Of a stretch of DNA of 39,201 bases, positions 5,594 through 34,348 are shown piece after piece. The notes beneath the pieces were generated by a model. That model did not search any database. It was not told the origin of the DNA and saw nothing but the letters and a program-made list of their open reading frames with translations. Source of the DNA: Jimgerdemannia flammicorona (Eukaryota). How positions within the stretch are numbered: position 1 is the first letter of the stretch; each line of letters begins with the position of its first letter. The DNA is taken from positions 1 through 39,201 of the forward strand of contig RBNJ01000149.1 of NCBI GenBank assembly GCA_003990765.1, given 5' to 3'. A program made the position numbers and the translations under genes.

Positions 5594-7126
5594 ATCTGTT
5601 TGGCTAAGGCAGTAATGGTTGCTGCCATTATGGCTATCTGTGCTGTGAGGTCTAGATCTGTTGATTTGCCATATTGTTTATTAGAGATAGTTGGACTACT
5701 GGTAATAGTGTTACTAATATAACTTGAGGTACTAGTGCAGAGTGTAATGGTGTTCTTTGAGTCTGTATAAGTTGCTGAAGTAACTATTGTAGATTTAGAG
5801 TAAGAGCTTGATAGATAGCTGTCTGTTGCTATATAGGTATGTTTTGTCCTGATGGAGGTATATCTCCTTTGGTAGTATATCTGAGATTAAATTCACTGAG
5901 ATACTCTAACTTCTCTTAGCTTTGGTCTCTATATAGTTGGGTTTGTTCAGTATCAAAGTAGATAGTATTAGTTATATATTAGATTTCTGATGGGCTTAAA
6001 TCAAGAGTTTAATCTGGTTCAGTATTAGTTTTAGTTTCAGATAGAGCTATAGCTGGGCCTACTTCTGGTTCAGGGTCAGGTTGTTGATGAAGAGTTTCTC
6101 TTACTTCTTTAAGAATATAGTGAGCCTTGTAATCCTGAAAATAGTAGTATAAGGCAGTCTTAGTCCTTATATGGTAAAAGTCAGTAGAGTTGAGCTACTT
6201 GGCTACAGAGACTTAGGCTTCATAAGGAAATGAGGCTAAAAAGATGGCTACTGGTTGTCCTAGATCACTTGGATTTGTAGAGCTAATAAAAACTCTTGTT
6301 GAGAAGAGTAAAGAAGGCTTCTATAAGACCTTCTTCATCTTGACTTGCAGGGTATAGAGCAAGGAGTTTAGTTTATAAGGTTTTGCCTATCTGTTAATTT
6401 AATTAGAGTACTTCTTTTGTAGATAAAGTCTGTCCCACTTGTTGCAGATGTAGAGGTCAAATTGTCCTTATATGTCAGATTAAATTCTCTCTAGATTGTC
6501 AGATAGTTTAGAATAAATTCTAGTTCAGAGGTTGGGCTTTATACCAACTTGTAGGAATTTCTCATAGAGATTTGTAGTAGGGTGAGAAAGCATCTTGAAG
6601 TAGAATTGAATTATAAACTGCTACTACTAAGTTATAAGAGAGTTACTTATAAAAGTACTATTACATAGTTCTGGAAGAGTTTTCTAGAAGTTCTGAATAT
6701 TCTGAAAGACTGTTTTCTATAAGATCAAGATCAATTTCATATAGAGTATATTCTCTATACTTATTGATTTCAAGATTAGATTGACATCTCAACTAAAGTC
6801 CTTTTTTGGACTAGTTCTAGATGTTCAGGATTTTCTGTATTTCAGAAAGTTCAAGAAACTAAGACCAGCTTAGTTGAATTGGCATATTGCTGCAGATAAT
6901 ACCCAATTAGGAAATTTTATAATATGGTTAGGAGTGGGATCTAATAGAGTATAAATTTACTTAAGAGTGGTTTGTAGGTTATTAAATAGATTTATTCACT
7001 ATTTATGATATTACTATACTAGAAGTAGTATATGAAGGGATATTGTGGAGAAGTATTCAGGAGTTCTTGTGTATTCAGATTGTTCAAGTCTGAGATTCTG
7101 AGGTCTGGAGGAGGGGGTATTTATAC
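5594..7126 (-). mobile_element. Family A copy A3: partial 5' LTR (6633-7126), PBS and 5' gag region
   Basis: Reverse complement of ~8364-9866 and 76-564; interrupted by the LINE fragment on the left and by a family B LTR at 7127. Confidence 0.88.
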
Positions 7127-8362
7127 TATTACATAGTGGTTACTAAGTTCTTTAAATATATCAAATTCTCTTCAAAGTGTATCTCTTAGACTAACTCAAG
7201 TTTGTTATAAGCAAGTTCTTATGGAAGTACCTTCCCAAGGTCTTATAGTCCTCAAACTTCTTATCTTTAAACTATCTTATTATCTCTTTAGATTACTTAC
7301 AAGGAATTGTATATATATATTACACTAAGTAGACTGACTTTATTTCAGAGAAAATAAGAGGGGTATTTATACAAAATATAATTCAATAGTTGCTAAGATA
7401 TAAAGCTAAATATAAATTCCAATAACTGAAATAAAATACCAGGATATGGAAAACTACTAAGTTCCAGTATCAGTACTGATGGTTGCACAGATTCAGGATG
7501 TTGGTATAATTTTAGTGATATAGGAAAATGGTATTGGAATAATTCTGAGTCACATCAGAATATCAGTGGAGGAACAGCTGTTACACAGGAAAAGAGTGCT
7601 AGTATAATTCAGTATAACTAAGGAACTTAGAGCAGAATGTTCAAGACTATAGAGGCTTCATCCTCATCAGAGGTCAGGATGTCTTTGAAGGAGATGAGAT
7701 CTATGAATGTCTCATCTATCTCATCATCATATAAGTCATATGTTTTACATATGTTGTGCAGGATGATATCATTGCTGATGATGTCATCATGTTTGGTGGT
7801 GGCAGGAACAAGGAAGTCTGGGGGCTCTCTAGTCTATGAGGTTCTCTTCTATGAAATAGGGGACAAATGTGGGGTTTTGGAGAGGTCTAACCTAGATACT
7901 TGGGCCTTGAAATACTGAGATCAATTCTTACAGGAATTGGTCTGGGTTGTTCTGAAGGATGAGATACCAGAAGTCTTCTACTTCATCACTATTAAGGGTG
8001 ATAGTAGACTGGGCTTCTGTAGCCACCCTGGCTTCTAGTGCATTGATATAGTGGGCTGACAGGTCTCTGAAGTCTGAGACTCTAATATACTCTAAGTTGG
8101 GAATCAACTATAATGTATGTCTGAAGATCTGATGAATCTTCTTAGCTGTTCTTATTTCATATATATTCATAAGAGTGGTATCTTATAACTCTTGAGGGCT
8201 GGCCTGTGGGAACTCCCAGTAGAGAAGGTTTCCTATTTTATACTCTTGCCATATTTAGAGACATTTGGTAGCAATAGTGATTCTTGTTTCTATTTTATAG
8301 TGGTAGAGGATAAAGTGATAAGGATCTGCAGTACCCAGGTTGATACTAGGAGATCTTCTTGT
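7127..8362 (-). repeat. Family B LTR fragment (diverged subfamily) containing the 3' two-thirds of the LTR ORF (7627-8362)
   Basis: Same-orientation homology to 17377-18563 and 24614-25791; begins TATTACATAGTGGT (= TGTCACATAGTGGT); other end missing. Confidence 0.88.
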
Positions 8363-8825
8363 GGACTTAAATAGATCTGAACATATAAGAACTTCTGAAC
8401 ACTTCTCCACAATATCTCTTTATATAACTACTCCTAGTATAGCAATATTATAAATAGCAAATAAATCTATTTAATAACTTACAAACTACTCTTAAGTAAA
8501 TCTGCAATCTGTTAGATCCCACTCCTAACTATATCATGAAATTTCCTAATTAGATATTGTCTGCAACAATACACTAATTTAACTAAGCTGGTCTTAGTTT
8601 CTTGAACTTTCTGAAATACAGAAAATCCTGAATATCCAAAACTAGTCTAAAAAAGAACTTTGATTGAGACATCAATCTAATCTTGAAATCAATAAGTATA
8701 GAGAATATACTCTATATGAAATTGATCTTGACCTTAAGAAAATGGTCTTTCAGAATATCCAGAACTTCCAGAAACCTCTTTCAGAACTATATAATGATAC
8801 TTTTATAAATAACTCTCTTATAACT

Positions 8826-8838
8826 TAATAGCAGTAGT
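8826..8838 (+). promoter_or_regulatory. Primer-binding site of family A, probably tRNA-Leu type
   Basis: Three copies read TAATAGCAGTAGT (8826), TAGTAGTAGCAGT (6629 minus) and TAGTAGTAGTAGT (38625 minus), 3 nt after the LTR end. Reverting transitions gives TGGTGGCAGCGGT, complementary to a common eukaryotic tRNA-Leu 3' end. The reconstruction is inference. Confidence 0.55.
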
Positions 8839-8861
8839 TTACAATCCAATTTTACTTTAAG

Positions 8862-11800
8862 ATGCTTTCTTACTCTACTATAAACCTCTATGAGAAATTT
8901 CTATAAGTTGGTATAAAGCCCAACCTCTGAACTGGAATTTATTCTGAACCATCTGATAATCCAGAAAGAATTGAACCTGATATATAAGGATAATTTGACT
9001 TCCACACTTATAACAAGTGGGATGGACTTCAACTACAAAAAGAAGTACTCTAATTAAATCAGTAAATAGGCAAAACTCTATATACCAAACTTCTTACTCT
9101 ATACCCCACAAGTCAAAATGAAGAAGATCTTATAAAAGTCTTCTTTACTCTTCTCAATAAGAGTTTTGTTAGCTCTATAAACCCAAGTAATCTAGGATAA
9201 CCAGTAGCTATCTTTCTAGCCTTAATTCCCCACAAAGCCTGAGCCTCAGTAGCTAAGTAGCACAACTCTATTAACTATTACTATATCAGAACCAAGACTG
9301 CCTTATTACTACTGTTTCCAGAATTATAAGATCTGCTATATTCTTAAAGAAGAAGTCAGAGAAATTCTTTATCAATAACCTGACTCTGAACCAGAAGTAG
9401 GCTCAGCTACAGCCCTATCTGAAACTGAAATCAATACTGAACCAGAACCAGCTTTTGAATTAAGCTCATCTGAAATCCAATATACAACTAATACTATCTA
9501 CTTCAATACTAAGCAAACTCAATCACATGGAACCAGAGTGAAGAGGAGAAGAAGTATTTTAGTGAATTCAATCTCAGATATACTACTGAAAGAGACATAT
9601 CTCTCTCAGAACAAAATACACCTACAGGATAACAAACAGTTATCTATCAAGCCCTTATACCAGATCTACAACAATTACTCCAGCAACTTATACAGACTCA
9701 AAGAACACCACTATACTCTGTACCAGTATCTCAAGTCATACCAGTAATATCACTATTAGTAGTCTAATCATCTTCAGTAAACAATATGGCAAATTAATAG
9801 ATTCTAGACCTCACAGCTCAGGTAGCCATAATGATAGCAACTATTACTACCTTAGCTTGACAGATCTGACCAATAAAAAGTCTGAGCCTACTTATCTTCA
9901 ATAGTGCTACACAGGAAGTCCAAAGCTTCATTAGTATAGTTGATATCAATTTTAAAGCCAATCAATAGACTAATGAGTAAGTTGCTGACCACCTTCTGAT
10001 AAACAATCAAGACCATACTTTGGAACAACTCTTTACTATCACTATGGCTTATATCTACCAAGTTGTTACATTCTTCTGAGGATCTACTAAAGAATAGTGA
10101 TGAATTCTTTCTGAAAAATCCCTTACATAGGATACCTGACCTACAGTTATTGCCCAAAATGCAACAAATAATACCTCTGGATATAGAGACCATCCTGCAG
10201 CCCCTGGGCTCAAATAGCTCAATATTACAGTAAAACTCTAATTGCTTAATCCTAAGTTAAACTCTATAATCTCAAATTTGATGTATATAGCAAAGAGGAA
10301 TTCAAAACCTTCTATACAAAACTGGAGTCACTCCTGAACACTGTTGGCCTAGGATACATTACCAATGATGAAGCACAAAATGGTACAAGAGCAGACCATT
10401 TATTCAACATACTATCTGAATAGCTTACAAGAAAGATCTAAGAACAAAGATACCCAGTTGATTGTGATTACCAATAATAGTATCTGATAAGAATCAAAAC
10501 TATGGTCAAGTAAATTCTAATAGCTGGACCAATTCTACCTGGAAGATAATTCAACAACAAGAAAAAAACTTGAACCAAGAAAGAAGAACCCAAGCATAAA
10601 GCATTCTGAGCTCTCTCTATATCTATCTTCTGGACATCTCAAAATCCTGAACTCACCTAGCTAAATACCTTCAAGAAACTCACTAAGAAGAAAGAAACAA
10701 ACTTTGAAGCAGAGTATGCTTTTATTGCTAAAAGACAGGACACATGGCCAGTGTCTGTCTCAACCAAAAACCCCAAACAGCAATATGAGCAACTGTTACT
10801 ACTCTGCATTGTCTCAACAATCTGATCACTAAGATATTAGACTTTATCAAGTTAAGACCAACTGCCATAGCCCCAACTAAAGGAAGTCAAAAGGCAGCTA
10901 GATATGATCTATATATAGCTAAAAAAGCTACAGTTTCCAACTAAGTTAAGTAAGTTTATATAGAGATCAGTATTCAAATTCCTGAAGGATATATTGAAAG
11001 AATATACTATTATAGCAGCCTAGTATTAAAAGGACTCTCAGTAAAAGGAGGAGTTATTGATCAAATTATATAGACAAAATAATTATCCTCATTCAAAACT
11101 ATAGCTGGACACTATTTAAGATTCTTATTGGTTTTTGTATTGCTCAGATCTTATTTAAAAAAATTGAGTTGACTCTGACAATCAAGAAAGTTCCTAAACT
11201 ACTGTCTACTATCTGAGGATCCAAAGGATTTGACTCATCAAACAAGACTCTAGCCCAAACTACTATGAATAAGAAAGAATAATTCTACAAGAAAATTAAA
11301 GATAGATTTGTACCTAGTGGTTGATGCCCCTATGTAGTATTGGAATGTACTTTTTCTGAATAATCAATAATTACTTCTCTTATATCAATGAACTGACTCA
11401 AAGGAGAACTAATAGAAGGAAAGTTCTTATAACTGAAATAACTACTATTGGATTAGACAAACTGCTTACACTCCAAGCTTTTGTCAATAGAGCACCTATT
11501 AAGATTAATATATATAGATAGTAGTACCTCAGGTAACTTCATCAATAAAGAAATAGCCAACAGACTCAAGGTCCTGATCTCTCCAGTACAACAGACTCAA
11601 ATAGTTGCTACTCAAACAGTTGCTACAGCTGATAGAACCTCTTATATTATTAGCAAGGAAGTCCACAACCTACTCTTATGAATTGGCAACTACTGAGTAT
11701 ATATTATACTCTAAATTATACTACTTCCTGACAACAAAATTATTCTTGAGACTCTATGGTTAAAACAAGAGAACCTTATGATCAATTAGATAAACTATTC

Positions 11801-14800
11801 TCTGATCATTAATAAAGGATGCCACAATTTCAAACTATAAGACAAAAGGGACCTACTCAATTCTAGTAATATAGGACCAAAGATCATCTACATCAACAAA
11901 CTACAACTCAAGAAATTAGCCAAGAAATGCCCTCTCTTTACTATCTCTATCTGACCATCTAAAGGAGAACTCAAGAATAATGAAGAAGACTTTTCCAAAG
12001 TTAATAGTTGTATTAGACCCCTACTTCAGAAGTTCTAAGATATATTTCCAAAGAAACTTCTAAAAGACCTACCATCTAAATAAGCAGTAGACCATACCAT
12101 CAAAACTATCCCAGATACCAAGTCTGCCTTCAAGTCAATCTACTACATATCTCTGAGAGAAATTAATATACTCAAGAAAGAAATTAATGAACTCCTAGAA
12201 TAAGGATTCATTAGATCTAGTATATTACTATATAGTATATTAGTCCTTATTGTTATCAAGAAAAGAAAAGATCTACAAATATGTATAGACTATTATGACT
12301 TCAATGAGCAAACTATCAAGAACTGCTGCCCACTATTCTGAATTGATGAAATATTCAATAGACTTACCAACCTACAGTTTATGAGCTCTTTTGACCTATA
12401 AAATAACTATTGGCAAATTACTATAAAGGAAGAAGACATCTACAAAACTGCCTTCTGAATCTGCTATAGATATTTTGAGTATCTGGTTATGTCTTTTAGC
12501 TTAACTAATACTTCTAAAATCTTCCAGATACTGATGAATACCATCCTACACCTATATCTAGATAAATTTATTATTGTCTACATTGATAACATTCTAGTCT
12601 TCAGCAAAACTCTAGAGAAATATCTCAAACATCTTAAACTAGTACTACTGAAGCTTTGAAAAAACTGACTCTTTGCAAAACTCAGCAAATGTGAATTCCT
12701 CCTGAAGGAAATTCAATTCCTTAGACACATTATTACTCTTAATGAAATCAAAGTAGACTCTAGCAAAATCTCTGCAATCAAGGATTAGCCTAGATCTAAG
12801 AAGCTAAAAGACCTCTAGTTATTCCTGAGACTAGCAAACTATTATCAGTGATTTGTTGCAAACTTTGCCAAGATTGCTACTACTCTTACTCAAATGACTA
12901 AGTACAGTAAAAAAGAAAAATAGTCCTGGACCACAAAGCAAGAGAAAGACTTTAACAATCTTATAAATTAGGAATCTGAACAAGATACAGCCTTTCAAGC
13001 CCTAAAGGATACCTTGATAATCACTTCAATACTTTAAGCAGCAAACTCTATCCTACTATATAAAGTTACCACTAATATCTCTGATCTAGTTCTTGAAGCA
13101 GTACTTATATAGGAAGGACACCCTGTGATCTATTATTCTCACAAGTTCAATGATGCCAAAATCAACTATACAACTCATGAGAAGGAGATGTTAGCTATCA
13201 TAGATACTCTAATCAAATGGCAACTATATCTTAAAGGAGTACACTTTACTATTTTAACAGACTACAAATCATTAGTTAACATCAAGATCCAGACTACCCT
13301 TTTCTGAAAGCAAGCCAGATGGATGAAAGTTCTCACCAACTTTGACTATGAAATCCAGTATCACCCTAGTAAGAAAAATATTGTTATGATATAATCTCCA
13401 GATCACTAATTGAAAAAGTTATCCAAACCCTCACCTTGGTTATCAACTCCATCATAGAATAAATTATTATAGTATGCACTAATGATAAAAAAGCTCAAGC
13501 ACTCCAAGAAATCCTGAGCAGTGATGATATTGATAAGTATACCTGGTACTATCAATACCAACTAAAGGACAATGCCATCTACTATAAGAACAGATTGTAT
13601 GTTCCTAACAATCAAGATCTCTGAAGGACTATCCTATTTAAATGTTATGATATCTCTACAGCCAGATATTTAGGATTTGACAAATGCTATAAAGTTATTT
13701 CCCAAAACTTCTACTGACCCTATATAGCAGATCAGCTAAAGACCTACATTACCTCCTATGATACCTACCAATACAACAAGTTCTCAACACTAGCAAAACC
13801 TGGCCTACTCTACTCTATTCTAGTACCATCTGCCAATTGGAAACAAATCTCTATAGACTTCATTGTATAACTATCCTGAACCAAGAATAGAAAAGATACA
13901 ATTGTTGTCTTTATAAACTATCTTAGCAAACAAGCATACTTTGTATCTACTGCTATAACTGTAATAACATCTGAAATCACTATACTTTTATTTGACAATA
14001 TCTTCTACTATCATGGTCTTTCTAAGATTATTATTAGTAACCAAAATCCAAAGTTTACCAGCTACTTTTGGAAAGCTCTTCATACATATATATCTTAGAA
14101 TGAAACTTATACTATCTACAACCTTTTACTCTAAAACTAATGGCCAAACTGAAAGAATGAACTAAACTCTAGAATAAATACTAAGGAACTATATTTCTTA
14201 TAGACAAGATAATTAGTATGAATACCTCACTACAGTCAAGTTTGCCTATAATAATAGTAAATAAGTCTCTCTTAAAATGACCCCATTCTTTGCCAATATA
14301 GAATAAAATCCAAACACCCCTCTGATACTAATCAGAACTATTGATGAACTCTCTACTGTCAAAGTTATGAAAGAATTCTTACTCTGAATATATAACTTAA
14401 GCCAGATTGCAATTGAGAATTTATCTTGAGCTTAAGAACAATAGTCATAGTATATCAACCAGCACTATTAAGAAGAAACTTTTAATATTGAAGAAAAAGT
14501 TCTACTAGATATCAGAGGATATTAAGTTGACAACCTCAAGTACAGATTCTCTATAAAGCTGAATAGCAAATTCATTGGACCATTTGAAGTTATTGCATAA
14601 GTTTCTCCAACTTTCTATAAATTGGCACTATTAGATATTATTAAGATTTACCTAGTCTTTAATGTCTAACATCTCAAGTAATATAATAAAAATGATAATA
14701 AGCTATTCTTGAACTAAACTACAAAACCACCTGCACCTATCATTATTAATGACTAATAAGAATATAAAGTTGAACAAATCCTCAATAAATGTAACCACAA

Positions 14801-14924
14801 GAACCACCCAAAATATCTTATCAAATGGAAAAGTTATCTGATCTATAATATAATATGGAAACTCAAAACTAATCTCTAGAATACCACTGACTTAGTTTAA
14901 GAATATGATTCTTTAAATAACTAA
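8862..14924 (+). pseudogene. gag-pol: Degenerate single-frame gag-pol of A1
   Basis: CFYC*KTGHMASVC knuckle (~10717-10758); protease IDSSTSGNFI (~11514); RT motifs ICIDYY*LN, FGLTN-like and VYIDNILVFS (~12576); RNase H YTTHEKEMLAII and FTILTDYKSL; integrase IDFIV*L and KTNGQTERMN; chromodomain EYKVEQILNK...YLIKWKSY (14760-14910). Confidence 0.9.
10835..11240 (+). pseudogene. dut: dUTPase domain of family A, between Gag zinc knuckle and protease
   Basis: FIKLRPTAIAPTKGSQKAARYDLY (motif 1), SSL (motif 2), GGVID (motif 3), IAQI (motif 4), *GSKGFDSS (motif 5, RGxxGFGSS); in frame with the knuckle. Confidence 0.88.
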
Positions 14925-15366
14925 AACTTGAACACTCCAGTATTTATTAATCCATACTATATATTACCTCTCTTGAATATTAAGTACTCTTATAATTATC
15001 ATAAATAAAATCAGAAACTCAGTAAGTTAAGATAAAAGAATACTGATTCTCTAGAAAAATAGCAAAACTGAAAGCCAGCCTATTCTCCCTATACTACTAG
15101 TGGAAAATGAGATATAGATATTCAAGAAGATCCTTTAGAGGAAATTCTCCAGCAGTAAATAATATCAGAATTACTTCTAGCATATAGTATTAAATACATG
15201 ACTCTTTAATATATGAATCTAATATATTAGGCAACTATACTATGAGTATGCTACTTTCTGAGAAAAATGAACATTACCAGACTTTTGACAATTCAAATAA
15301 TATAACAATACTAGACTAAAATTAGAAGACCTCAATGAGAATGTCAAAAGCTAAGAAGAGAAGAGT

Positions 15367-17102
15367 TATAAGTATACAACATCTAAGCCACTGAAATCAC
15401 ATGTCACTCTCAGAACAAATCTAGAAATTATATGTAAGATCATAAAGCTGAGTCAAACCAAAGTTACAGAGTACAAAGTTGAGTCAACTCAAAGTCACAG
15501 AATATAAGAATTATATAAATAGAACTTTATTACTTAGGACTGAATACATATATACCAAGTACTCAAATATATCAAAACAGAGAACTGCAATAAACTAAAC
15601 AAATAACTATAACTCTTGAACATATATACAACTATGACTACCAAGATCTACAACTACATCTATACTGATATTTAGAATGCTATTATCAACTAAGCCATAC
15701 CTCTTCTGCCCCTCATGAATATCCATAGCCTGATATCTTTCTACTTCATGAAAGCCTACTAAAATACTCTGAACATACTCAGCAAAGCCTACTAAATTAG
15801 ACAAATCTCAAGCTACTACTAGATCAACTGCCTTCTAGAAGATATGGTTAAACACTACATGATACAGATATTATCTAGATATCTTAATATCAGAAACTCA
15901 TTATCTATAAATACTAAGAACTTTTTTATAAGTATAGTACCTTTATTCTCTACCTCTAAGTTATTACTACAAAAATAGTTGCCACTCTATCCTATAGCCA
16001 AATTGATGATATGGTACAAGAACTCAACCACAAGTACATTAAGTATATTCAAACTATAGACAGAACCTTCTCACACTCTGATGACTATATTCTGTAAATG
16101 CTCTAAGTAAGATATGCTATAAAGGACATCTATAATATAATTTAGTTTAATAATAATAAAATAGAAGATAATGATCCCTCTGATACCAACATAACCTCTA
16201 GCCAAAGATCCCTGCCAGCTCTGATCACTCTACTAATCTTACTAATGAACTTACAATAGTTCATAACCACTTATAAGACCTATTGGAATAATGACCACTG
16301 GTATAAATATCAACTCACATTTACATCCAACTACTTTAACTATAATGAGGAGACTGGAGAATACAATCTGTACCTCCAGACAATCCTCAAGATCAAATCA
16401 ACAACTCTATCTCCTGAGTATAAATAAAATGAACTACAGCTATCAGCATACTACAACTCTATAACTCATAGTACTATTATCTATAGAAGGTATGCAGATA
16501 GTAAATCTGATGAAAGTGAAGATGATATACTTCTTCTCTATCTACTAATACTTTACCCAGTATATAAGACAGATAATGCCATCTTATGAGATAGTGATAT
16601 AGTTCTAACCTACTACTACATAAATGAATAAGGAGACATAATTCAAGAACTACTCTTCTTAGATAACTACTTTATCAGAGATAATATTATCAATAGTGAT
16701 CTTATTAAAAACTATTTAGATAGCATCTAAATCTATAGATAGCTTAGCAGTTATTAGTATAGTTAGATTAACCTTATATGATATAACTGTATACTGACTC
16801 AGCAGTCAGATGATCTCTTGATATATCAGTTTACACTTATACTATATGACTATATTCTAACTCAATAAAATACTAAGTACTATATCTATAATTAGCATAG
16901 TTCAGATAGTCTTTAATTAGTATAAATACCCTCTCTCCCAGACCTCAGAAACTCAGACTCAAATATATCCAAATATGTAAGAACTTCTGAACACTTCTCT
17001 ACAATATCTCTTCACATAACTACTCCTAGTATAATAATATTATAAATAGTAAATAAATCTATTTAATAACCCACAAACTACTCTTAAGTAAATCTGTATC
17101 CC
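15367..17102 (+). repeat. 3' LTR of A1 (last ~310 bp displaced by A2 insertion)
   Basis: Follows purine tract AAGAAGAGAAGAG (15353-15365); begins TATAAG (TGTAAG in copy A2), the inverted repeat of the CTTACA end; TATA box at 16921. Confidence 0.88.
15634..16730 (+). pseudogene. Unknown ~365-aa ORF inside the family A LTR (U3)
   Basis: ATG 15634 to TAA 16730 with one frameshift near 15855; internal stops are one transition from Q/R/W codons and several are sense codons in the other copy (26541-27639). Confidence 0.75.
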
Positions 17103-17376
17103 TGTAAGAGAGTTATTTATTAAGGTAACTATTACATAATTCTAGAAGAGTTTTCTGGAAGTTCTGGATATTCTGGAAGACTATTTTCTTTAGATCAAGA
17201 TCAATTTTATATAGAGTATATTCTTTATGCTTATTGATTTCAAGATTGGGTTGATGTCTCAATCAAAGTCCTTTTTCAGACTAGTTCTGGATGTTCAGAA
17301 TTTTCTATATTTCAAGAAGTTTAAGAAACTAAGACCAGCTTAGTTGAATTGGTATATCATTGCAGATAATATCTAA

Positions 17377-18905
17377 TGTCACATAGTGGTCGCTGAGTTC
17401 TTCAAATACATCAGATTCTCTTCAAGGTGTATCTCTTAGACTAACTCAAGTTTGTTATAAGCAAGTTCTTATTGGAGTGCCTTCCCAAGATCTTATAGTC
17501 CTCAAACTTCTTATCTTTAAACTGTCTTGTTATCTCTTAGATTGCTTGCAAGGAATTGTGTGTATTGCACTGAGAGGAACTAACTTTATTTCAGAGGAAA
17601 TAAGAGGGGTATTTATACAAAATATAATTCAATGGTTGCTAAGATATAAAGCTAAATATAAATTCCAATAACTAAAACTACTAAGTTCTAGAGTCGGTAC
17701 TGATGGTTGTACAGGTTCAGGATACTGGTATAATTCAGTATCACATCAGAATACCAGAGCTGGAACAATTTCGCATCACCTCAGAATGCCAGTACTGGCA
17801 TTATCCAGTGTTATATGAGAATACCGATACTGGCATTATCTAGTGTAACAAAGAACTTAGAGCAGAAAGTTCAGAATCATAGAGACTTCATCCTTATCAT
17901 TACTGAAGGAGATAAGATCTGCAAACTCATTATATAGGTTACACATTTCACATATGTCACATGGGATGATATCATTGCCAATGACATCATCACATTTGGC
18001 AGGGAAATCGGGAACAAGATCTGGAGCTCTCCAGTCTATGAGGTTCTCTTCCACAAAGTAAGAAACAAATATGGAGTCTTGGGGAGGTCTAACCTGGATG
18101 CTTGGGCCTTAGAATACTGAGATCAATCCTTGCAGGAATTGGTCTGGGTTGTTCTGAAGGATGGGGTGCCAGAAGTCTTCTACTTTATCACTATTGAGAG
18201 TGATAGTGGACTGGGCTTCTGTAGCCACCCTGGCTTCTAGTACATTGATATGGTGGGATAACAGGTCTCTGAAATCTGAGACTCTAATATACTCCAAGTT
18301 GGGAATCAATCATGGTACATACCTGAAGATCTGATGGATCTTCTTAGCTGTCCTCATTTCACATATATCCATGGGAGTAGTATCTTGTAGCTCTTGAGTG
18401 CTGGCCTGTGGGAACTTCCAGCAGAGGAGGTTTCCTATTTCATACTCCTGCTATATTTGGAGGCATTCAGTAGTAATGATGATCCTTGTTTCCATTTCAC
18501 AGTAGTAGAGGATGAAGTGATAGAGGTCTGCAGTACCCAGGTTGACACTAGGAGTCCTTCTTGAGCAGGTCCCCATGGCTCTTCTGATGTCTTGGAATAT
18601 TCTTTCCTCGATTAAGGTGCCTTGGTGGTTCCTTGACCTTGAGGTTTGGTGGGCAGCAGGCATTTCATTTGTGGTAAGTCTTTGAGCTATTTTGGGATTG
18701 GTGGTTCTTGTTGGTTGCTGCTACTGCAGTTCCTCAATCCTTCTTTTATATTCTTCAGGATGCTTATACTATAGTCACAATGACTCACAGTTGGTCATCA
18801 TTGCTCATCTCATATGCCATATGATCTTCTTGTGCTCTGATCTGGTGGCTTGCAAGGAAAGGCTGTCTCCTGTGCTGATGTCATCATTCTGGGGTCACCA
18901 TTACA
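17377..18905 (-). repeat. 3' LTR of element B (1529 bp)
   Basis: Minus strand begins TGTAATGGTGACC after a short purine-rich tract (AGAAGAACGA) and ends ATGTGACA; TATAAATACCCC at ~17607-17618. Confidence 0.93.
17857..18663 (-). pseudogene. Unknown 268-aa ORF wholly inside the family B LTR (ORF4)
   Basis: ORF-track pieces 18451-18663, 18109-18309 and 17857-18054 are all in one frame, separated by three stops; in the other LTR two of these positions are TGG and CAA. Confidence 0.85.
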
Positions 18906-19207
18906 TCGTTCTTCTAAATAAGGATCTTTTTGAGCATCCTTATTCATTGGTCCAGTCCTGAAAAAATTGCTGATCCCATAACCTCTGGCAAGGGGTTGAA
19001 AAGTGGTGTTTATGGACTGGCATCTTCTCTTTGTATTTTGGCATAATGGTGAAGGGTTGCTCCTTTCATATAGAGCAAGGGCCTGATTCTGATCTTGATC
19101 AATCAGTTGACAGTTTGAACTCCTCTGACTTCGAAAGTCTCATGGATGAGTAGTTGCTAGTATCATATCCCTTAGAGAATGGTCTAGACAGATAGCCTGC
19201 TAGTCAT
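18665..19207 (-). pseudogene. Putative unknown 180-aa ORF spanning the PPT/LTR boundary of element B (ORF3)
   Basis: ATG 19207 to TGA 18665 is exactly 181 codons and ends 1 nt before the ORF4 ATG. It has many internal TGA/TAA/TAG (roughly 15), each one transition from R/Q/W codons; at least one TAA is CAA in the 5' LTR. Confidence 0.5.
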
Positions 19208-19260
19208 GAGACATGCTGTTATGATTCATGGACTAGAACCTCGCAGGTGGTCATCATGTT

Positions 19261-20466
19261 TTACTTCTCTTATATAGGTTTGTGGTACTTCTTGAGTCTG
19301 TTCCTATATACTGTAGTAGGCAGTATGGTCCCTGAGATTTTTCTAAGCCAGAAGGTAGTTATCTTGATATCTTGCACATAGAAGAGTCCTTCCCATTTGG
19401 GCTCCAGTTTTCACAACCATGAGGCTTCTATCATATTTTGATATAGTAGAACCTTTTCTCCGATTCAGATGGGTTCTAGGGTCTTGTGATTCTTTTCTGC
19501 ATTCTTCCTTATCAGTACTTGTAACTTGGTGATATAATCTTCAGCCTTCTTCCTAATTTGGTGTAGTCTCCAGATTTCTACATCAATCTGTCTCCAAGTT
19601 AGGTCTAGATTTATAGCTGAGGTTCCATCAGAATCTTCTTCTCTGAAGAGTAGCTCCCTTGGGGTAAAGTGTATACTCTGTGACCATATGTCTTATAGGA
19701 CAGAGAGGGTGGTTGGGAGATAGTTATCCCAATTCTCATATGTCTCTGAGATCTTCACTAGAATGTTCTTAAGAGTCTTATTGGTTCTCTCTATCTGTCC
19801 ATTTTCTTGAGAGTGGTATGCAGTGGTCTTGATGTGCTAGATCTTGTATTTCTGATACATTATCTCATAGAATCCATTGACAAATTCTGTGCTATAGTCT
19901 GTTGTGATTTGCTTTGGTGTCTTGTAGCAGCAGATGATTTCTCAGTACAGGAAGTTGGCTATAGAGAGGGCATTGGCTTCTTGTAATGCTCCTGCCTCTA
20001 TCTATTTAGTAAAGAGGTCTACAATAACTATAATATAGCAGTTTCCTGATAGTGTTACTGGTAGTAGTCCAATGATATCTATTGCGATGTGGTGGAAGGG
20101 GATAGGCTCAATTCTTGATGACCTGGATGCCTAGTCTTGCTAATCTTGTTTCTGTTTTTGGCACTTGTCACACCCTTTGATAAATTGGTGCAGGTCTTCT
20201 TCCATCTTGGGCCACTACATGGTTCTTCTTGCCTTATCATATATATTGATTCCTCCTAGGTGTCCTTACTCATATACTTCCTTCATTACTTGATACTTCT
20301 TGTGTTCAGGTATTACTAGCTTTCCTCCTTTTCTGAGTATAGTGTTGTCTAGTTCAAACTGTTTCCAAGTCCAGTTGATGATGGTGATTATCCAGAGTTC
20401 AAGGTGGTTGGGCATCTTCTGCTGCCCAAGATAGCTGATTAATCCATAGTATAGCTCCTTATTCAT
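19261..20466 (-). pseudogene. int: Integrase of element B (zinc-binding HHCC remnant, DDE core, GPF-like module; no chromodomain)
   Basis: GHLGG...WPKM...CDKCQ, IAIDIIGLLP, IVIVDLFTK, ITTDYSTEF, TTAYHSQENGQIERTNK, KLEPKWEGLF; 402 codons without net frameshift. Confidence 0.9.
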
Positions 20467-23400
20467 GTTGAATAGTCTTGATGGGGGTGTTTCAGGATGT
20501 TATTGAGAGTGCATTGGTATTGGTGTTGGTCTTTCCTGAGTGGTGCTTGATGGTACAGTCATACTATTGTAGCCTGTAGATCTATCTGGCATATATTTCT
20601 TTGGAGTTCAGAGTGTGGAATAGCTAGGCAAGAGTGGAATGGTCTGTTTGAATGGTGAAGTATTTCCCAGCTAGGTAGTAGTGGAACTTGTCTACTGCCC
20701 AAACTACTACTAAGCATTCGAGCTTGCATGACTCGTAGTTCTGTTCTGCTCTGCAGGTACCTCAGCTTGTATAAGAGATGACATATTCATGTCCATCTTT
20801 CTTCTGAGCTAGGACTGCTCCAAGTCCTATAGTACTTGTATCTGTCTGTAGGATAAATTCTAGGTTCCAATCTGGTCTTCTGAGGATAGGTGCTTGGGTC
20901 AACCTGGTCTTGAGTTTATTGAAGATTTCTTGGCGCTCTTTGGTCCATTCAAATTTGGTCTCCTTCTTCAGTAGCTCATAGATAGGTGCTACAATGTTGG
21001 AGTATCTTTTGATAAATCTTCTGTAGTAGCTGGCCAGTCCAAGGAAGGTGTGGACTTCTGTGATTGTTCTGGATCTTGGGTAGGCTACAACAGCCTCGAT
21101 CTTCATAGGGTCTGTGTGGATTCTGGTCTGATTGATGAGGTGTTCTAGATAGGTGATTTCTTGAGCTGCAAACTTACATTTCTTAGGCTTAATGTAGAGG
21201 CCATGTTTCTTGAGCTTCTTGAGGGCTAGCTGTATGTGATTGACATATTCCTGTGCATTGTTGCTGAAGATGATCACATCATTAATATAGACAAAGAGCT
21301 ATTTTCCAATCTCATTGCTGAAGACTCTGTTCATCATTCACTGAAAACTTGCAGGGGCATTGCACATTCCAAATGGCATTTGCAGATAGATATAGGTGGC
21401 ATTAGATATAATGAAGGCTGATTTCTCACTGGTATCTTGAGTGAGACCAATCTGATGGAAGCCTGAGAACAGATCCAAGGTGGTGTAGTATTTGGCTTCG
21501 CTTCCAAAAGTAGTAAGAATTTCTTGAATATTTGGTAAGAGTTGTCTATCCTTCTTGGTGATAGCATTGAGTTTCCTATAGTCAATGCAGAGTCTTGGCA
21601 CAAACTCTCTAGGCTTGCTTCCTTTCTTTAGAGCAAGGATAATGGGTGAGGCCCAGGGGCTGATAGCTTGCTTGATGATTCTGGCTTCTTCCATTTCCTT
21701 GAGTTCTGCTCACAGCCATTCTCTATAGGCAGGTGGTATGGGTCTGGCTTTCTGGTAGATGGGCTTGGTATCACCAGTATCAACTTCATGGTAGTACTTG
21801 AGTTCTTGATTGTAGATATCCCTGAAGTCTGTAGCAAGTACTCCTTCATTCTAATGCAGGATCTTGAGAAGTTGTTCCTCTAGAGGAAAGTTTTTTCCAA
21901 TAGTGTATGTATGCTTGATCTGATCCTTATCTTTCTTATATTCAAGTTTGGTAATCTTGGTAGCAGTATAGACTCCTCTTCCAGTAGATCCAAAGCCTTA
22001 TTCTCCTCTCTTGGTCTTGATGTGTTTGATAGCTTCAATGATCTTGGGTTTCTTGACTTTGTAGATCAGTATCTGGCCAATCCTGTCATACTTCTTGACT
22101 TCGAATGGAGTGGTGGAGTTGTGATTTCTGACTATGAGAAAGATCTCACCAGTGTAATTAGGGTCAATTACTCCTCCTTCAACTGAGATTTTGCTTTTGG
22201 CCAGACTGCTCCTGGTCTTGATAATTCTGGTATGATTTTCTGGTAGCTTGACTCCAATTCCAGTGCCAAGTAGGGTGGTGGTCTGTGGTTCAAGGGTAGT
22301 ATCTTGAATGCTGGCAAGGTCCATTCCTATAGCTCCTTTAGTCTTGTATTCTGGGATCTTGGCTTTGGGGTGAAACTTCTTGACCTTGAGGGTGATGTCT
22401 GATTCTTGTTCCTCCTCATCATCACTGTCAGCTTGGAGCTCTGGGGTTTGGTCATCTTCTTTGGCTTTCCTTTTTGCTTCAGTGGCTTCTTGCTCATATT
22501 TCTATTGGTAGATTTTCCTGACTTCACTGATACAGGACCAGCAGTCATTCAGGTGTTTGGAGCAGTACATCCTAGTACTATGGGGCATCTCTCTTGAGGG
22601 ACATACCCATCAATGATCTTGTTATATGTACCACTGCTCATCTGTGAGCTTGGGTGTCTTGTTCTTGTTCATATTCTTATTTACCGAGTATATGAAGATC
22701 TCTGTGTCTTCTTCATCTCCTTCCTCTATGTCTGGTAGAACTCCTTTGTGAACATTGATAGAGACTCATACCTTTCTTCCTCTATAATTGATCTGCATCT
22801 TCTGGGCATTGAGGTCAATGATGGCCTTGACCTTGTGAAGTCATTGGTTGCTAATGAGGATATCATAGTTAGTGGCACTTGTGACAATCACATCTACTGA
22901 GATAGTAGCTCCTCCTATCTTGATGGAGACTTCTCAGATTTTGCCAAGGGGGGTAGCTCATGTACCATCTGCTATGATATAGACCATCTTTGTGGACTCT
23001 TCAATGTCTCAACCTAGGCAGTCAATTGCCTTCTTACTTATGAGGCATCCTCTAGCACCAGTATCAATGATGGCATCAAAGATACAGTCTTCAATCTAGC
23101 AGAGAGTATAGGCTGATGTCTTGCACTGGTCTTCGAATTCTTCACCTGAGTTCTCAGATTCTTCCTGTGCATTGTAAGCTTCTACAATCTTGTACTCTTG
23201 ATTCTTGGCAGTAGTTGTAAGTCCTACTCTCAACTGCTGTCTGAAGGCAGGGACTTCAGCTAGCTGTCCAAAGGTAGCATTGACCTTCTGTTCCTTGAGA
23301 TCCTTGTAGATATCATACTGGTGGATCTTGGTCTTGTGTAGCTTCTGTTCCTTCTTGCTTGCACTTTTTCCTGAGACTGGAGTAGTGCCTTCAATAATTT

Positions 23401-24487
23401 GGCAGGCAGCTTTATCTAACTCTATATCTTGATCAATCTCCTCAGGTTGGGTCTTGCCTTGAATAGTGACAGCTGGGGTCTTCTTTGGTCTTCCAACTGG
23501 CTTGCTATTGCTCTTCTTGTCATAGGGCTTGGACCAGGTTCTGGTATCTTCAGTAGTAGGGTAGAATTCAAGCTCCTCATAGTATTCTTCATTATCAGTG
23601 TCACCAATCTCCTTGATGACTACTGCATTGGTTTGTTCTCTGGTTCTGCTAGCATTGCTTGGTTGGGCCTTGCATCTTGTTTCAGTCATACAATTCTTTG
23701 CATAGTGGCCTTCTTCTCCACATCTGAAGTATATGATATTGCATTCTTCTATAGCAGCTGCAAATCTCTATACTGGTTTCCTGTTGGTGCTTTGGACTTC
23801 TCTAACAACATCACCAAGGTGTGCAGTCATCTTGGCAAACTGCTTGGCAAGTTCCTCCACTGGGTCAGCTTTGGCTGTCTTAGGGGTAGATGAGATTGGT
23901 TGTCTGTTTACAACTGTAGCAGGTATGATACTAGTTGACTTTGATGGCTCTATCTTGATGCCAGTTATTTTCTCCATTGAGTGTTCAGTAGAGTGTCTGG
24001 CAGTCCAATATCTCTGTACAAAGACCACTTTCTGATCAAGGGTCAGTATAGCTGAGATAGACTGGATTACTAGGGCAATTTCAGAGTGAACTCCTTTGAG
24101 GAAGGTTGAATCTACTATTTGTTCCTTGAGGTGGTCATCATAGCCAGCCAAGACAATCTGATAGCAGATTCAGATATAGAATGAGTTGGGATCTTCACTA
24201 AGTCCCTGGCAGATAGTATTAAGTTGATCCTTGAGAGCTTGCTTGATCTCTTCGGTATAATATGTTGTTCTGAGGAAGACCTTCATGTTAGTAAGTTTGG
24301 CTGCACCAGTATCAGCAATAGTGGCTGCATTGAACTTGTCTCTGGCAGGTTCTCTGAGGCTGACTAGTAGAAGGGCCAATTGAGCATCCACACCAAGAAC
24401 TCATATGGCAGCAAATTGTTCAAAGTCTTCAATGAAGGTCAGGATTGACTCTTCAGTAGTATATTCATAGAATGTGGGGGAGTGCAT
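20459..24487 (-). pseudogene. gag-pol: gag-PR-dUTPase-RT-RNase H of element B in one reading frame
   Basis: All minus-strand ORF-track pieces from 24619 to 21277 share a frame; knuckle (Y/C)FRCGEEGHYAKNC (~23690-23731), protease IIDTGA (~23055-23072), RT SPWASP, RLCIDYRKLN, LDLFSGFHQI, MPFGMCNAPASFQ, VYINDV, RNase H LQTDTSTIGLGAVL. Confidence 0.92.
21979..22390 (-). pseudogene. dut: dUTPase domain of family B, between protease and RT
   Basis: KKFHPKAKIPEYKTKGAIGMDL, TRSSLA, GGVIDPNYTGEI, DRIGQI, RGE*GFGSTG: all five trimeric dUTPase motifs. Confidence 0.95.
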
Positions 24488-24593
24488 TTCTATCTTATCT
24501 TGAATTCTTACAGGAGTGACTCTTGTAGTCAGGGTAGTTGTTGTGAGGGTTGTTTGTTTTTCAGCTTGAAAGTGAGAGATTTGTCTTAAATCA

Positions 24594-24610
24594 CCAGCCA
24601 GTGGGCACCA
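24594..24610 (-). promoter_or_regulatory. Primer-binding site of element B (tRNA identity undetermined)
   Basis: TGGTGCCCACTGGCTGG begins 3 nt (ACT) after the CA end of the 5' LTR. Confidence 0.65.
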
Positions 24611-24613
24611 AGT

Positions 24614-26133
24614 TGTCATATAGTAGTTGCTGAGTCCTTCAAATATGTCAGATTCTCTTCAAGGTATATCTCTTAGACTAACTCAAGTTTGTTATAAGCA
24701 AGTTCTTATTGGAGTGCCTTCTCAAGATCTTATAGTCCTCAAACTTCTTATCTTTAAACTGTCTTATTATCTCTTAGATTGCTTGCAAGGAATTGTGTGT
24801 ATTGCACTGGGAGGAACTGACTTTATTTCAGAGGAAATAAGAGGGGTATTTATACAAAATATAATTCAATAGTTGCTAAGATATAAAGCTAAATATAAAT
24901 TCCAATAACTAAAACTATTAAGTTTCAGGGTTGGTACTGATGGTTGTACAGGTTCAGGATGCTGGTATAATTTAGTATCATATTAGAATACCAGAGCTGG
25001 AACAATTTTGCATCACCTCAGAATGCCAGTACTGGCATTATCCAGTATTACATGAGAATACTGGTGCTGGCATTATCTAGTGTAACAAAGAACTTAGAGC
25101 AGAAAGTTCAGGATCATAGGGGCTTCATCCTCATCATCACTGAAGGAGATAAGATCTGTGAACTCATTGTGTAGGTCATACATTTCACATATGTCATGCA
25201 GGATGATGTCATCACCAATGACATTATCACATTCAGCAGAGAAATCAGGAACAAGATCTGGAGCTCTCCAGTCTATGAGGTTCTCTTCTACAAAGTAAGG
25301 AATATCTTGGGGAGGTTTAATCTGGATGCTTGGGCCTTGGAATACTAAGATCAATCCTTGCAGGAATTAGTCTGGGTTGTTCTGAAGGATGGGGTGTCAG
25401 AAGTCTTCTACTTCATCACTATTGAGAGTGATAGTGGACTGGGCTTCTGTAGCCACCCTGGCTTCTAGTGCATTGATATGGTGAGATGAAAGGTCTCTGA
25501 AATCTGAGACTCTAATATACTCCAAGTTGGGGATCGACTATGGTGCATGCCTGAAGATCTGATAGATCTTCTTAGCTGTCCTCATTTCATGTATATTCAT
25601 GGGAGTGGCATCTTGTAGCTCTTGAGTACTGGTCTGTGGGAACTCCCAGTAGAGGAGGTTTCCTATTTTATACTCCTGCCACATTTGGAGGCATTTGGTA
25701 GCAATGGTGATTCTTGTTTCCATTTTATGGTAGTAGAGAATAAAGTGATAGAGGTCTGCAGTACCCAGGTTGATACTATGAGTCCTTCTTGAGTGGGTCC
25801 CCATGGCTCTTCTGATGTCTTGGAACATTCTTTCCTCAACTAAAGTACTTTGGTGGTTCCTTGACCTTGAGGTTTGGTGGGCAGCAGGTATTTCATTTAT
25901 AGTAAGTCTTTGAGCTATTTTGGGATTGGTAGTTCTTGTTGGTTGCTGCTACTGCAGTTCTTTAATCCTTCTTTTATATTCTTCAGGATGCTTGTACTGT
26001 GGTCACAATGACTCACAGTTGATCATCACTGCTCATCTCGTATGCTGTATGATCTTCTTGTGCTCCAATCTGGTGACTTGCAAGGAAAGGCTGTCTCCTG
26101 TGCTAATGTCATCATTCTGGGGTCACTATTATA
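24614..26133 (-). repeat. 5' LTR of element B (1520 bp), with second copy of ORF4 (25094-25891, start decayed to ATA)
   Basis: Direct repeat of 17377-18905, differing mostly by transitions and one 9-bp in-frame deletion near 25300. Confidence 0.93.
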
Positions 26134-26540
26134 CTAATTAGGAAATTTCATAATGTAGTTAGGAGTGGAATCTAACAGGATACAGATTTACTTAAGAGTA
26201 ATTTGTGGGTTATTAAATAGGTTTATTTGCTATTTATAATATTACTATACTAGAAGTAGTTGTGTAAAGGAATATTATAGAGAAGTGTTCAGGAGTTGTA
26301 TTCAGAAGTCTTATCTCAGATTCTGAGGTCTGGGAGAGAGAGTATTTATACTAATGGGAGACTATCTGAACTATACTAAATATAGATATAGCACTTAGTG
26401 CCTTACTAAGTCAGAATATAGTCACATAGTATAAGTGTAAACTGATATATCAAGAGATCATCTGACTGCTGAGTCAGTATATAGTCATGTCATATAAGGC
26501 TAATCTAACTATACTAATGACTGCTAAGCTATCTATAGAT

Positions 26541-27639
26541 TTAGATGTTATCTGGGTAGTCTTCAATGATATCACTATTAATGATATTATCTTTGATAAA
26601 GTAGTCATCTAAAAAGAGTGGTTCTTGAATTACTTCTCCTTATTTGCTCAGATAATAATATATTAGGACCTTGTTACTATTCCACAAGATAGTATCATCT
26701 GTCTCATATACTGAATATAGAGTTAGTGGGCAAAAGGAGAGGTGTATCATCTTCACTTTTATTAGATTTGCTATCTGTATACCTTCTATAGGTTACAGTA
26801 CTGTATGTTGCTGAGTTGTAGTAAGCTGGCAGCTATACTTTATGTTACTCATACTCAGGTAGTGGAATTGTAGGTTCAATCTCAAGGATTGTCTGGAGGT
26901 ATAGATTGTATTCTCTAGTCTCTTCATTATAGTTGAAGTAATTGGAAGTGAATGTAGATTGATACTTATACTAGTGGTCATTATTTCAATAGGTCTTATA
27001 GGTAGTTATGAACTATTGTAAGTTTATTAATAATATTAGCAGAGTGATCAGGGCTGGCAGAGATCCTTGGCTAAAGATTATATTGGTATCAGAGGGATCA
27101 TTATCTTCTGCTTCATCATTATTGAACTAAATTATATTATAAACATCCTTTATGGTATATCCAACTTGAGGCATCTGCAGAATATAGTTATTGGAGTGTG
27201 GGAAGGTTCTGTCTGTAGTTTTAATATACTTGATATACTTGTGGTTGAGTTCTTATACCATATCATCAATTTGGCCATAGGACAGAGTGGTGACTATTTC
27301 AGTAGTGATAACTTAGAGGCAGGGAATAAAGGTGCTATACTTGTAGAAGAGTTCTTGGTATTTGTGAACAATGAGTTTCTGATGTTAGAACATCTGGATA
27401 ATATTTATATTATGGTGATATTCAATCATATCTTCCAGGAGGTGGCCAATCTAGTAGTAGCTTGAGATTTGTTTAATTTGGTGGGCCTTGCTAAGCATAT
27501 TCAGGGTATTCTATCAGGCTTCTACAAAGTAGAGAGATACTAGGCTATAGATATTTATGAGAGGCAGAGGAAGTGTGGCTTGATTGACAATAGCATTCCA
27601 AATATCAGCACAGATATAATTATAGATCTCAGTAATCAT
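26541..27639 (-). pseudogene. Second copy of the family A LTR ORF
   Basis: MITEIYNYICADIWNAIVNQATLPLP...IIEDYPDNI*; colinear with 15634-16730; one frameshift near 26730. Confidence 0.75.
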
Positions 27640-28347
27640 ACATAGTTGTAGGTATATTCAAGAGTTGTTGTTATTTGTTTTGTTTGTTGTGGTTCTTTGT
27701 TTTGATATATCTGAGTACTTGATATATATATATTCAGTCCTGATTGGTAAGGTTTTGTTTGTATAAATCTTATATTCTGTAACTTTAAGTTGACTCAGCT
27801 TTATGCTCTGTAACTTTAGTTTGACTCAGCTTTGTAATCTTATATATGATTTCTAGATTTAATCTGAGGGTGATATGTAAATTCAATGGCTTGGAGGTTA
27901 TATACTTACAACTCTCTCCTTCTTAGCTTTCAACATTCTCATCAAGCTCTTCTAATTTTAGTCTAGTATTATTATACTATTTGGATAATTAAAAGTCTAG
28001 TAATGTTCATTTTTCTCAGAAAGTAGTATACTTATAGTACAGTTGCCTAATATATTGGATTCATATATTAAAGAGTCATGTATTTGATACTATGTACCAA
28101 AAGTGATTCTGATGTCATTTAAGAATTTCCTCTAAGAAATCTTCTTAAATAACTATACCTTATTTCCTACCAGTGGTATGGGGAGAATAGACTGACTTTC
28201 AGTTTTACTATTTTTCTAAAGAGTTGGTATTCTTTTGTCTTGTCTTGCTGAGTTCTTGATTTTATTCATAATAATTATAAGGGTACTTAATATTTATAAG
28301 AAGTAGTATATAGTATAAGACTGATAGGTGTTGGAATACTTGGGTTT

Positions 28348-32120: not shown

Positions 32121-32287
32121 TGGTTCAGTATTGATTTCAGTTTCAGATAGAGCTATAATTGGGCCTACTTCTGGTTTAGAGTCAGATAGTTGATGAAGGA
32201 TTTCTCATCTTTCTCTGGTAATATTCAGGTTACACAATCTTTTGGCAACACTTTCAACACAGTTTCTGGAGAAAAGCTACTAGTATC

Positions 32288-34318: not shown

Positions 34319-34348
34319 GGATTGATTGAGAACAAACCATATTTCATT

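Follow-up and report, generated by a model that had tools for sequence, protein, structure and literature searches.

Two dead, nested Ty3/Gypsy elements of Jimgerdemannia flammicorona with a dUTPase and, probably, an accessory gene in the U3 region of a long terminal repeat

The contig RBNJ01000149.1 of Jimgerdemannia flammicorona (assembly GCA_003990765.1), analysed here over 39,201 nucleotides (positions 1 to 39,201, referred to below as the window), is a nest of decayed retroelements, as self-comparison and the alignment of copies indicate. Two of these, named A and B, are the subject of this work. It seems likely to us that they are dead, nested Ty3/Gypsy elements of different lineages, both bearing a dUTPase, each with an accessory gene of about 250-270 codons in the U3 region of an unusually long terminal repeat (LTR). 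As part of the same reading, the two LTR proteins appear to be orphans without relation to each other, maintained by purifying selection during the active life of the elements. Accessory genes separate complex from simple retroviruses, while LTR retrotransposons are usually drawn as gag-pol only.

Element B is inserted within the 3' LTR of A copy 2, as the flanks of B show, and a solo B LTR truncates the 5' LTR of A copy 1, replacing its upstream part. The 3' LTR of A copy 1 stops short near 17100 and abuts there on the LTR end of copy 2. A copy 2 is interrupted in its leader by a long interspersed nuclear element (LINE) and has a clean 1.7-kb deletion (32116-32122 against 9450-11144 of copy 1), in which gag, the last part of the leader and most of the dUTPase were lost. 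Every copy of A and B in the window is decayed. The coordinates are collected in Table 1.

Table 1. Positions in the window of elements A and B, their genes and LTR features, and the other retroelements. ORF, open reading frame; PBS, primer-binding site; RT, reverse transcriptase.
Feature	Position	Strand	Remarks
Element B	17377-26133	minus	8757 bp, complete
B 3' LTR	17377-18905	minus	1529 bp; ends read from alignment
B 5' LTR	24614-26133	minus	1520 bp; PBS-like site from 24610
B U3 ORF, 3' LTR	17857-18663	minus	starts MPAA; ~268 codons + stop; 3 internal stops; tblastn with P0001-P0004
B U3 ORF, 5' LTR	25094-25891	minus	265 codons + stop; 3 internal stops; start codon lost
B U3 ORF, solo LTR	8362-7630	minus	more decayed, one frameshift
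TATAAAAG (TATA-type), candidate promoter of B U3 ORF	18743-18750	minus	~80 nt before ATG; putative
B main TATA box	17606-17619	minus	~20 nt before AATAAA; ~240 bp downstream of ORF stop; repeated at 24843-24856 (5' LTR) and 7360-7373 (solo LTR)
B gag-pol	19273-24487	minus	Pfam and motif coordinates
B gag start	24487	minus	
B CCHC zinc knuckle	23728-23687	minus	
B protease	23110-22790	minus	
B dUTPase	22366-21980	minus	between protease and RT
B RT	21628-21146	minus	
B RNase H	20947-20561	minus	
B integrase	20313-19813	minus	
B pol end	about 19273	minus	
Solo B LTR	7131-8361	minus	~80% identity to LTRs of B; U3 start cut off
Element A copy 1	8364-~17100	plus	copy within the range of the earlier note
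Element A copy 2	17105-17376, 26134-32122, 32116-32206, 38080-39201	minus	
A copy 1, 5' LTR remnant	8364-8822	plus	last 459 bp, downstream of TATA box; LTR-copy alignment
A copy 1, PBS-like site and ~1 kb leader	8826-9785	plus	site from 8826; precedes gag start
A gag	9786-10758	plus	ends in CCHC zinc knuckle 10717-10758
A dUTPase	10837-11246	plus	decayed, frameshift before last motif
A pol	11505-14921	plus	Pfam
A protease motif	11505-11543	plus	
A RT	12306-12722	plus	
A RNase H	12975-13343	plus	
A integrase zinc domain	13610-13780	plus	
A SH3 (SH3_Tf2-1)	14544-14684	plus	
A chromodomain	14763-14909	plus	E 6.6e-5, 23.2 bits, just under 25.1 cut-off; decayed copy
A polypurine tract and putative 3' LTR start	15353-15372	plus	tract 15353-15365; TGTAAG at 15367 (read from copy 2)
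A U3 ORF, copy 1	15975-16730	plus	251 codons + stop (frame 15975-16727); 7 internal stops; start codon lost
A U3 ORF, copy 2	26544-27297	minus	8 stops, one frameshift; tblastn with P0007
A copy 1 TATA box and start of R/U5	16918-17100	plus	TATA box 16921-16928; LTR cut near 17100
Distal part of 3' LTR, A copy 2	17105-17376	minus	LTR split by B, other part 26134-26425; self-BLAST, B flanks
LINE	32207-38079	plus	APE endonuclease, RT, terminal A-run; GC-rich (~52%)
Third Gypsy piece, chromovirus	565-~2200	plus	RNase H end, integrase zinc domain, SH3, chromodomain

Element B is a complete Ty3/Gypsy element without a chromodomain, and hence not a chromovirus. Its domain order is gag(NC)-PR-dUTPase-RT-RH-IN (NC, nucleocapsid; PR, protease; RH, RNase H; IN, integrase), and Pfam searches on its translations, in which stops were taken as X as they were for A, gave no Chromo match in any of its three frames. 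The two LTRs are 91.5% identical (17377-18905 against 24614-26131) and the element is flanked by a 4-bp target duplication; a PBS-like TGG site follows the 5' LTR, and a short purine run precedes the 3' LTR. The dUTPase matches Pfam PF00692 with 86.7 bits over profile positions 2-129 of 129, as well as 81 dUTPase sequences in the PDB, down to E 6.1e-22.

Element A belongs to the chromoviruses, its domain order being gag(NC)-dUTPase-PR-RT-RH-IN-chromodomain. Its dUTPase is encoded between the CCHC knuckle and the protease motif and does not share the frame of pol; it reaches 29.9 bits with PF00692 (profile positions 3-70, cut-off 22), its last motif is recovered in a shifted frame, and 23 PDB sequences match it (best E 6.2e-8). 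The order PR-RT-RNase H-IN, with the integrase after RT, was found by Pfam in both elements, and their RT-RNase H regions share 30% identity across 402 columns. These results bear out the earlier note, made from the sequence of 8364-26133, which had described two distinct Gypsy lineages, one with a chromodomain and a dUTPase before the protease, the other with no chromodomain and a dUTPase after it. Additionally, about 115 codons of AT-rich DNA on the plus strand of the A leader (~9440-9790) are free of stops, in a different frame from that of the gag start at 9786; an upstream ORF, or an N-terminal part of gag put out of frame by decay, may lie here.

All three B LTR copies in the window carry a frame of few stops, detected with tblastn. 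It begins 242 bp into the LTR, and about 240 bp separate its end from the main TATA box. In the two LTRs of the complete element its internal stops fall where the sister copy or intact relatives have tryptophan or glutamine. A near-length search of 5.8 billion proteins yielded four intact relatives of 174-271 amino acids with 60-78% identity; none of the four has a Pfam domain, and one source labels its entry 'hypothetical protein'. The MPAA start is common to the full-length relatives. A profile search of 1.84 billion representatives gave seven matches at E <= 0.001, six of which look genuine (138-342 amino acids), the seventh, an ankyrin-repeat protein, being discounted; none of the matches is fused to another domain. 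The one short contig that came from a single metagenome scan, L001, holds an intact ORF of 323 codons, and about 180 bp past this ORF its core TGTATAAATACCCCTC...AATAAA is identical to that of the B LTR. The TATA-type sequence TATAAAAG is found again at 25971-25978 in the 5' LTR and at nucleotides 4-11 of L001.

The corresponding frame of A is interrupted by 7 stops, as compared with 19-44 in the other five frames, and the A TATA box lies downstream of it. When the frame was translated with X at the stops, a single match was found among 991 candidates: P0007, an intact relative of 247 amino acids with 135/251 identities (54%, E 3e-87) and a C-terminus that is alike.

Purifying selection on both LTR genes is suggested by dN/dS ratios (nonsynonymous over synonymous substitution) of about 0.22 in both families, by a deficit of second-position changes in A, and by insertions and deletions among B family members that comprise whole codons. 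The ratio was ~0.22 between the two A copies, 0.22-0.24 between the B ORF and L001, and 0.28-0.31 between the B ORF and the solo LTR copy, against 0.57 between the two LTRs of the single B insertion, which reflects decay after insertion; these values were obtained with the Nei-Gojobori method (NG86), which is rough on transition-biased, partly saturated sequences such as these (pS, the proportion of synonymous differences, up to 0.74), and this weakens the case they make. The differences between A copies 1 and 2 by codon position are 31/13/41 and 14/9/20. Open frames of 247-342 codons persist in relatives down to 20-45% identity.

The end of the A LTR is given by five independent copies that break alike, at 564, 6635, 8822, 17105 and 38629, the sequence ending CTTACA. 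Past this end, three of the A copies run on into a PBS-like site and ~1 kb of leader, which copy 1 shares with the minus-strand copies at 5603-6634 and 38080-38628. As the A TATA box lies ~30 bp before the point equivalent to 8364, the segment 8364-8822 represents R/U5, at the end of the LTR. The start was sought in the two A copies. Between the pol stop (~14922) and the TATA box they share a single purine run of at least nine, at 15353-15365, directly followed by T and then by TGTAAG, the reverse complement of the LTR end. Furthermore, one soil-metagenome contig (n=1) joins 11663 to 15369, as a nested insertion would. From these three signals we place the start of the A LTR, with fair confidence, at 15367, which would make it ~2.05 kb long. 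The earlier note had given both families LTRs of 1.5-2 kb with a U3 ORF. For B this is correct (1.52 kb, with the ORF seen in three copies); for A the frame is real and the ~2.05-kb LTR is the probable one, while 8364-9856 (repeated at 5603-7090) could be ruled out as a single LTR, since the LTR stops at 8822 and is followed by the PBS-like site and leader.

The position of the A ORF inside the LTR is a point that we infer from sequence signals and one contig joint, since no complete A LTR lies within the window: each 5' LTR is truncated by the window end or by the solo B LTR, and they reach at most ~120 bp upstream of the TATA box. This weighs against a coding LTR in A, as does the summed contig depth, which over 15480-16665 (88-187) does not rise above that of the A interior (~90-270), the LTR-like excess (607-828, the R/U5 part) being confined to the bin from 16666 onward. 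Both observations would suit an arrangement in which the 3' LTR of A measures just ~0.6-0.7 kb and the A frame, as a plain third ORF, lies between this LTR and pol; a coding LTR would in that case be peculiar to B, and dUTPase and LTR gene would no longer go together. Extra ORFs downstream of pol are indeed well known (PMC6431247, PMC5408684). However, between the ORF stop at 16730 and 16834 there is neither a purine run nor a TG start with a matching inverted repeat, whereas the sole polypurine tract common to both copies directly precedes the mirror of the LTR end, next to the contig joint. The depth, which derives from contigs of soil-metagenome and 'organism A' runs that cover small shares of the stretch and in which transcripts are not detectable, likewise shows no excess over the ORF-bearing part of the B LTR (485-527 against 398-589). 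It was therefore dropped as a means of delimiting the A LTR, being equally blind to the known case of B. We regard the short LTR as unlikely and retain the coding LTR for A.

The two elements differ in both accessory components. The dUTPase lies before the protease in A and after it in B, and the two enzymes (31% identity over 72 residues) resemble each other no more than they resemble the cellular trimeric dUTPases in the PDB. No homology was detectable between the LTR proteins: hhalign gave a probability of 0.9% over 12 columns, the B proteins matched nothing in A by tblastn, and the profile search with the B family contained no A-type protein. These differences, together with those between the lineages, are compatible with two independent acquisitions. 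The competing view is that the LTR genes, and perhaps the dUTPases, share one origin by common ancestry or recombination and have diverged beyond recognition, so that inheritance rather than convergence would account for them. Both proteins have about 250-270 amino acids with acidic C-terminal parts, both genes are placed alike, ahead of the TATA box that drives the genomic RNA, and accessory proteins evolve fast. We nevertheless find a single origin improbable in view of the failed profile comparisons, the opposite placement and distance of the dUTPases, and the 30% identity of the RTs, and independent acquisition is preferred. A short motif, P.F[IV]..YF[IV]..[DN][VI]ID, recurs in the best-conserved C-terminal blocks of the two families (~220-237 in P0007, ~195-210 in P0002); it is the best BLASTP segment between them, at a non-significant E of 0.15, and could be a common binding motif.

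The searches for a function of the LTR proteins gave little. All eight proteins (8/8) lacked a Pfam family at E <= 1, the Sag family included, and PDB profile searches with both families returned no matches at E <= 1. No locus for either family was found in the genome or viral contigs searched, and no hydrophobic segment was seen by eye. The first AlphaFold2 (AF2) model of the B protein, built on 8 sequences, was unusable (pLDDT 34.5), while a second one on 12 sequences (pLDDT 66.8, pTM 0.58, residues 60-160 at 82-96) predicts a helical core followed by a disordered acidic C-terminal third. Foldseek found no match to this model at E <= 0.001 in the PDB or BFVD, and in a VIA-align comparison with 48,161 chains no Z reached 5, the best being 4.2, which is noise level for helical models. 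About 27 of the best 50 VIA-align rows are, by their titles, DNA-binding proteins of the helix-turn-helix type, at scores below the meaningful level; this may serve as a lead but is not a result. In the ESM Atlas the best feature score of P0001 was 0.86 (below the 0.9 bar), to Basidiomycota clusters, and P0007 had no usable feature match, its structural rows all being at TM <= 0.30 and its Atlas model at 0.39. Our best guess is that the LTR proteins would be trans-acting regulators or counter-silencing factors, its sole basis being the confidently predicted helical core and acidic disordered tail of the B protein.

Being located in U3, the gene would travel at the 3' end of the genomic RNA, and reverse transcription would duplicate it to both ends of each new insertion, so that it would also persist in solo LTRs. 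The B gene probably has its own promoter, the conserved TATAAAAG upstream of its ATG, and could end at the AATAAA of the LTR ~270 nt past the stop codon; with its own promoter and the LTR poly(A) signal, each LTR would thus be a self-contained gene cassette. Alternatively, the gene might be expressed from a spliced subgenomic RNA, as in retroviruses. Retroviral dUTPases are established to exclude uracil from cDNA, and by analogy those of A and B would presumably do the same. One may go further and suppose that such cassette LTRs (own TATA, ORF of 250-270 codons, poly(A)) would encode a trans-acting regulator or counter-silencing factor with an acidic tail and a helical core that possibly binds DNA, that they arose repeatedly, preferentially in lineages that captured a dUTPase, and that they could be expressed from solo LTRs after the death of the element; taken together, this is speculative and hardly probable.

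Some further points have to be set beside those already raised against our reading. The A family comprises a single intact relative: when P0007 was used as the query, none of the 81 candidates but P0007 itself was recovered. No family, fold or motif pointing to a function of the LTR proteins was found in Pfam, the PDB, Foldseek, VIA-align or the Atlas. The promoter and poly(A) assignments in B are pattern matches only, transcription and translation of the LTR frames are predictions, and the window copies are all broken. The dUTPase and the LTR gene co-occur in two families (n=2), and the convergence under a shared host pressure that the earlier note proposed is, from two families in one window, a hypothesis. 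It is least likely that the LTR frames do nothing for the element and are mere passengers, whether captured fragments of host genes or chance ORFs of a gene caller, as the missing domains and folds, the low-confidence predictions (the shallow-alignment and Atlas models) and the tiny families might suggest, since against this stand the low dN/dS in both families and the second-position deficit, frames that stay open in distant relatives with whole-codon indels, and an ORF position relative to TATA and AATAAA that is conserved in the independent contig L001.

The decay of the copies consists almost entirely of transitions. Among the polarised C-to-T (or G-to-A) changes between the B LTRs, 33 of 50 are at CpA; CpG is nearly absent (7 in one LTR), and compared with related metagenome contigs the window has A/T for their G/C about twice as often as the reverse. 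The transition and CpA decay with the AT shift fits a process like repeat-induced point mutation (RIP) in a fungal host. The LINE, far less AT-shifted than the surrounding Gypsy copies, is on its plus strand much richer in G than in C (GC skew +0.35 to +0.52); its GC-rich segment was ruled out as a Gypsy element by its APE endonuclease, RT and A-run. A second LINE fragment, 72% identical and in the opposite orientation, lies at 3078-4939 (minus). The third Gypsy piece lacks its 5' half, being cut off exactly where the A LTR ends (564), and is probably the family C of the earlier note. For the plain 464-bp LTR ascribed to that family, no direct-repeat pair of 464 bp was found in the window. Because its 5' half is missing, the piece is unusable as a dUTPase contrast, its LTR pair and any dUTPase lying outside what the window shows. 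At 5603-8822, a minus-strand A LTR with leader (5603-7131) stands head to head with the plus-strand A copy 1 (from 8364); both pieces break within ~40 bp of the A TATA box, and the solo B LTR lies between them. Both B insertions in the window (2/2) are in A LTRs. This arrangement hints at a recombinational inversion or at some target preference on the part of B.

Elements of Phanerochaete and Tuber bearing a dUTPase were reportedly treated in papers of 2008, going by the reference list of Novikova et al. 2010. In fungal Gypsy families the dUTPase has been placed at the N-terminus of Pol, at the C-terminus, or between PR and RT, and independent acquisition has been proposed (Novikova et al. 2010, PMC2864245). 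PosPlaTy3-3/-4/-5 of Postia placenta, the elements of Phanerochaete chrysosporium and Tmt1 of Tuber resemble A and B in having a trimeric-type dUTPase within Pol, whose place, N-terminal or between PR and RT, corresponds to that in A or in B, respectively, and some of them have chromodomains (PMC2864245). A figure legend of that paper names an 'additional ORF of unknown function', and no LTR ORF is mentioned in its available portion; the comparison with A and B is one of descriptions only. A dUTPase between PR and RT is also present in rotifer (PMC5408684) and planarian (PMC6431247) elements. The bdelloid rotifer elements Juno, Vesta and TelKA share this position with B and have lineage-specific extra ORFs (Rodriguez et al. 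2017, PMC5408684), but their ORF3 lies between pol and the 3' LTR and is often of enzymatic or env-like origin, whereas the ORF of A and B is an LTR-resident orphan. Extra ORFs are known upstream of gag in Retrosat2 (PMC3485330) and downstream of pol (PMC6431247). Plant elements of the Tat, Ogre and Retrosat2 types likewise have long LTRs (2-6 kb) and fast-evolving accessory ORFs of unknown function, but ORF0 of Retrosat2 is in the internal region upstream of gag-pol and not in the LTR, and no dUTPase is reported in the available portions of these papers (PMC3485330, PMC6431247). For crapaud, variable U3 halves are described, with no LTR ORF mentioned in the part of the paper at hand (PMC10787394). 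Full-text literature searches turned up no fungal Gypsy element described as having a conserved protein gene within its LTR, a scope outside which Repbase, GyDB and the supplement of PMC2864245 fall. The suggestion of the earlier note that the system is undescribed thus stands for one half: the dUTPase positions and their independent capture are published, A and B being two more examples of a pattern known since 2008-2010, while the LTR-resident genes look new, as two orphan families with signs of purifying selection.

In mouse mammary tumour virus (MMTV) the sag gene lies inside the U3 of a long LTR and is hence duplicated at both ends. The likeness of A and B to MMTV and the betaretroviruses consists in a protein gene in U3, observed directly in B (both LTRs and the solo LTR) and putative in A, and in a dUTPase between NC and PR, which applies to A only, as in B the dUTPase follows PR. 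A likeness between the dUTPases of betaretroviruses and of fungal chromoviruses had already been pointed out (Llorens et al. 2009, PMC2774666). The differences are that A and B are of the Metaviridae type, that A has a Gypsy-type SH3 and a chromodomain after the integrase, that the U3 proteins have no Sag match, and that between pol and LTR no further long frame or Pfam match that would represent env was found. The betaretrovirus-like package of the earlier note is accordingly kept for A and B as a functional analogy, and not as membership.

The placement of a gene in the LTR doubles its copy number at every insertion and leaves it in solo LTRs. If the genes described here are expressed, solo LTRs would be potential protein-coding genes and not mere promoters, and the LTR proteins would be candidates for acting on host silencing or on the transcription of the element itself.

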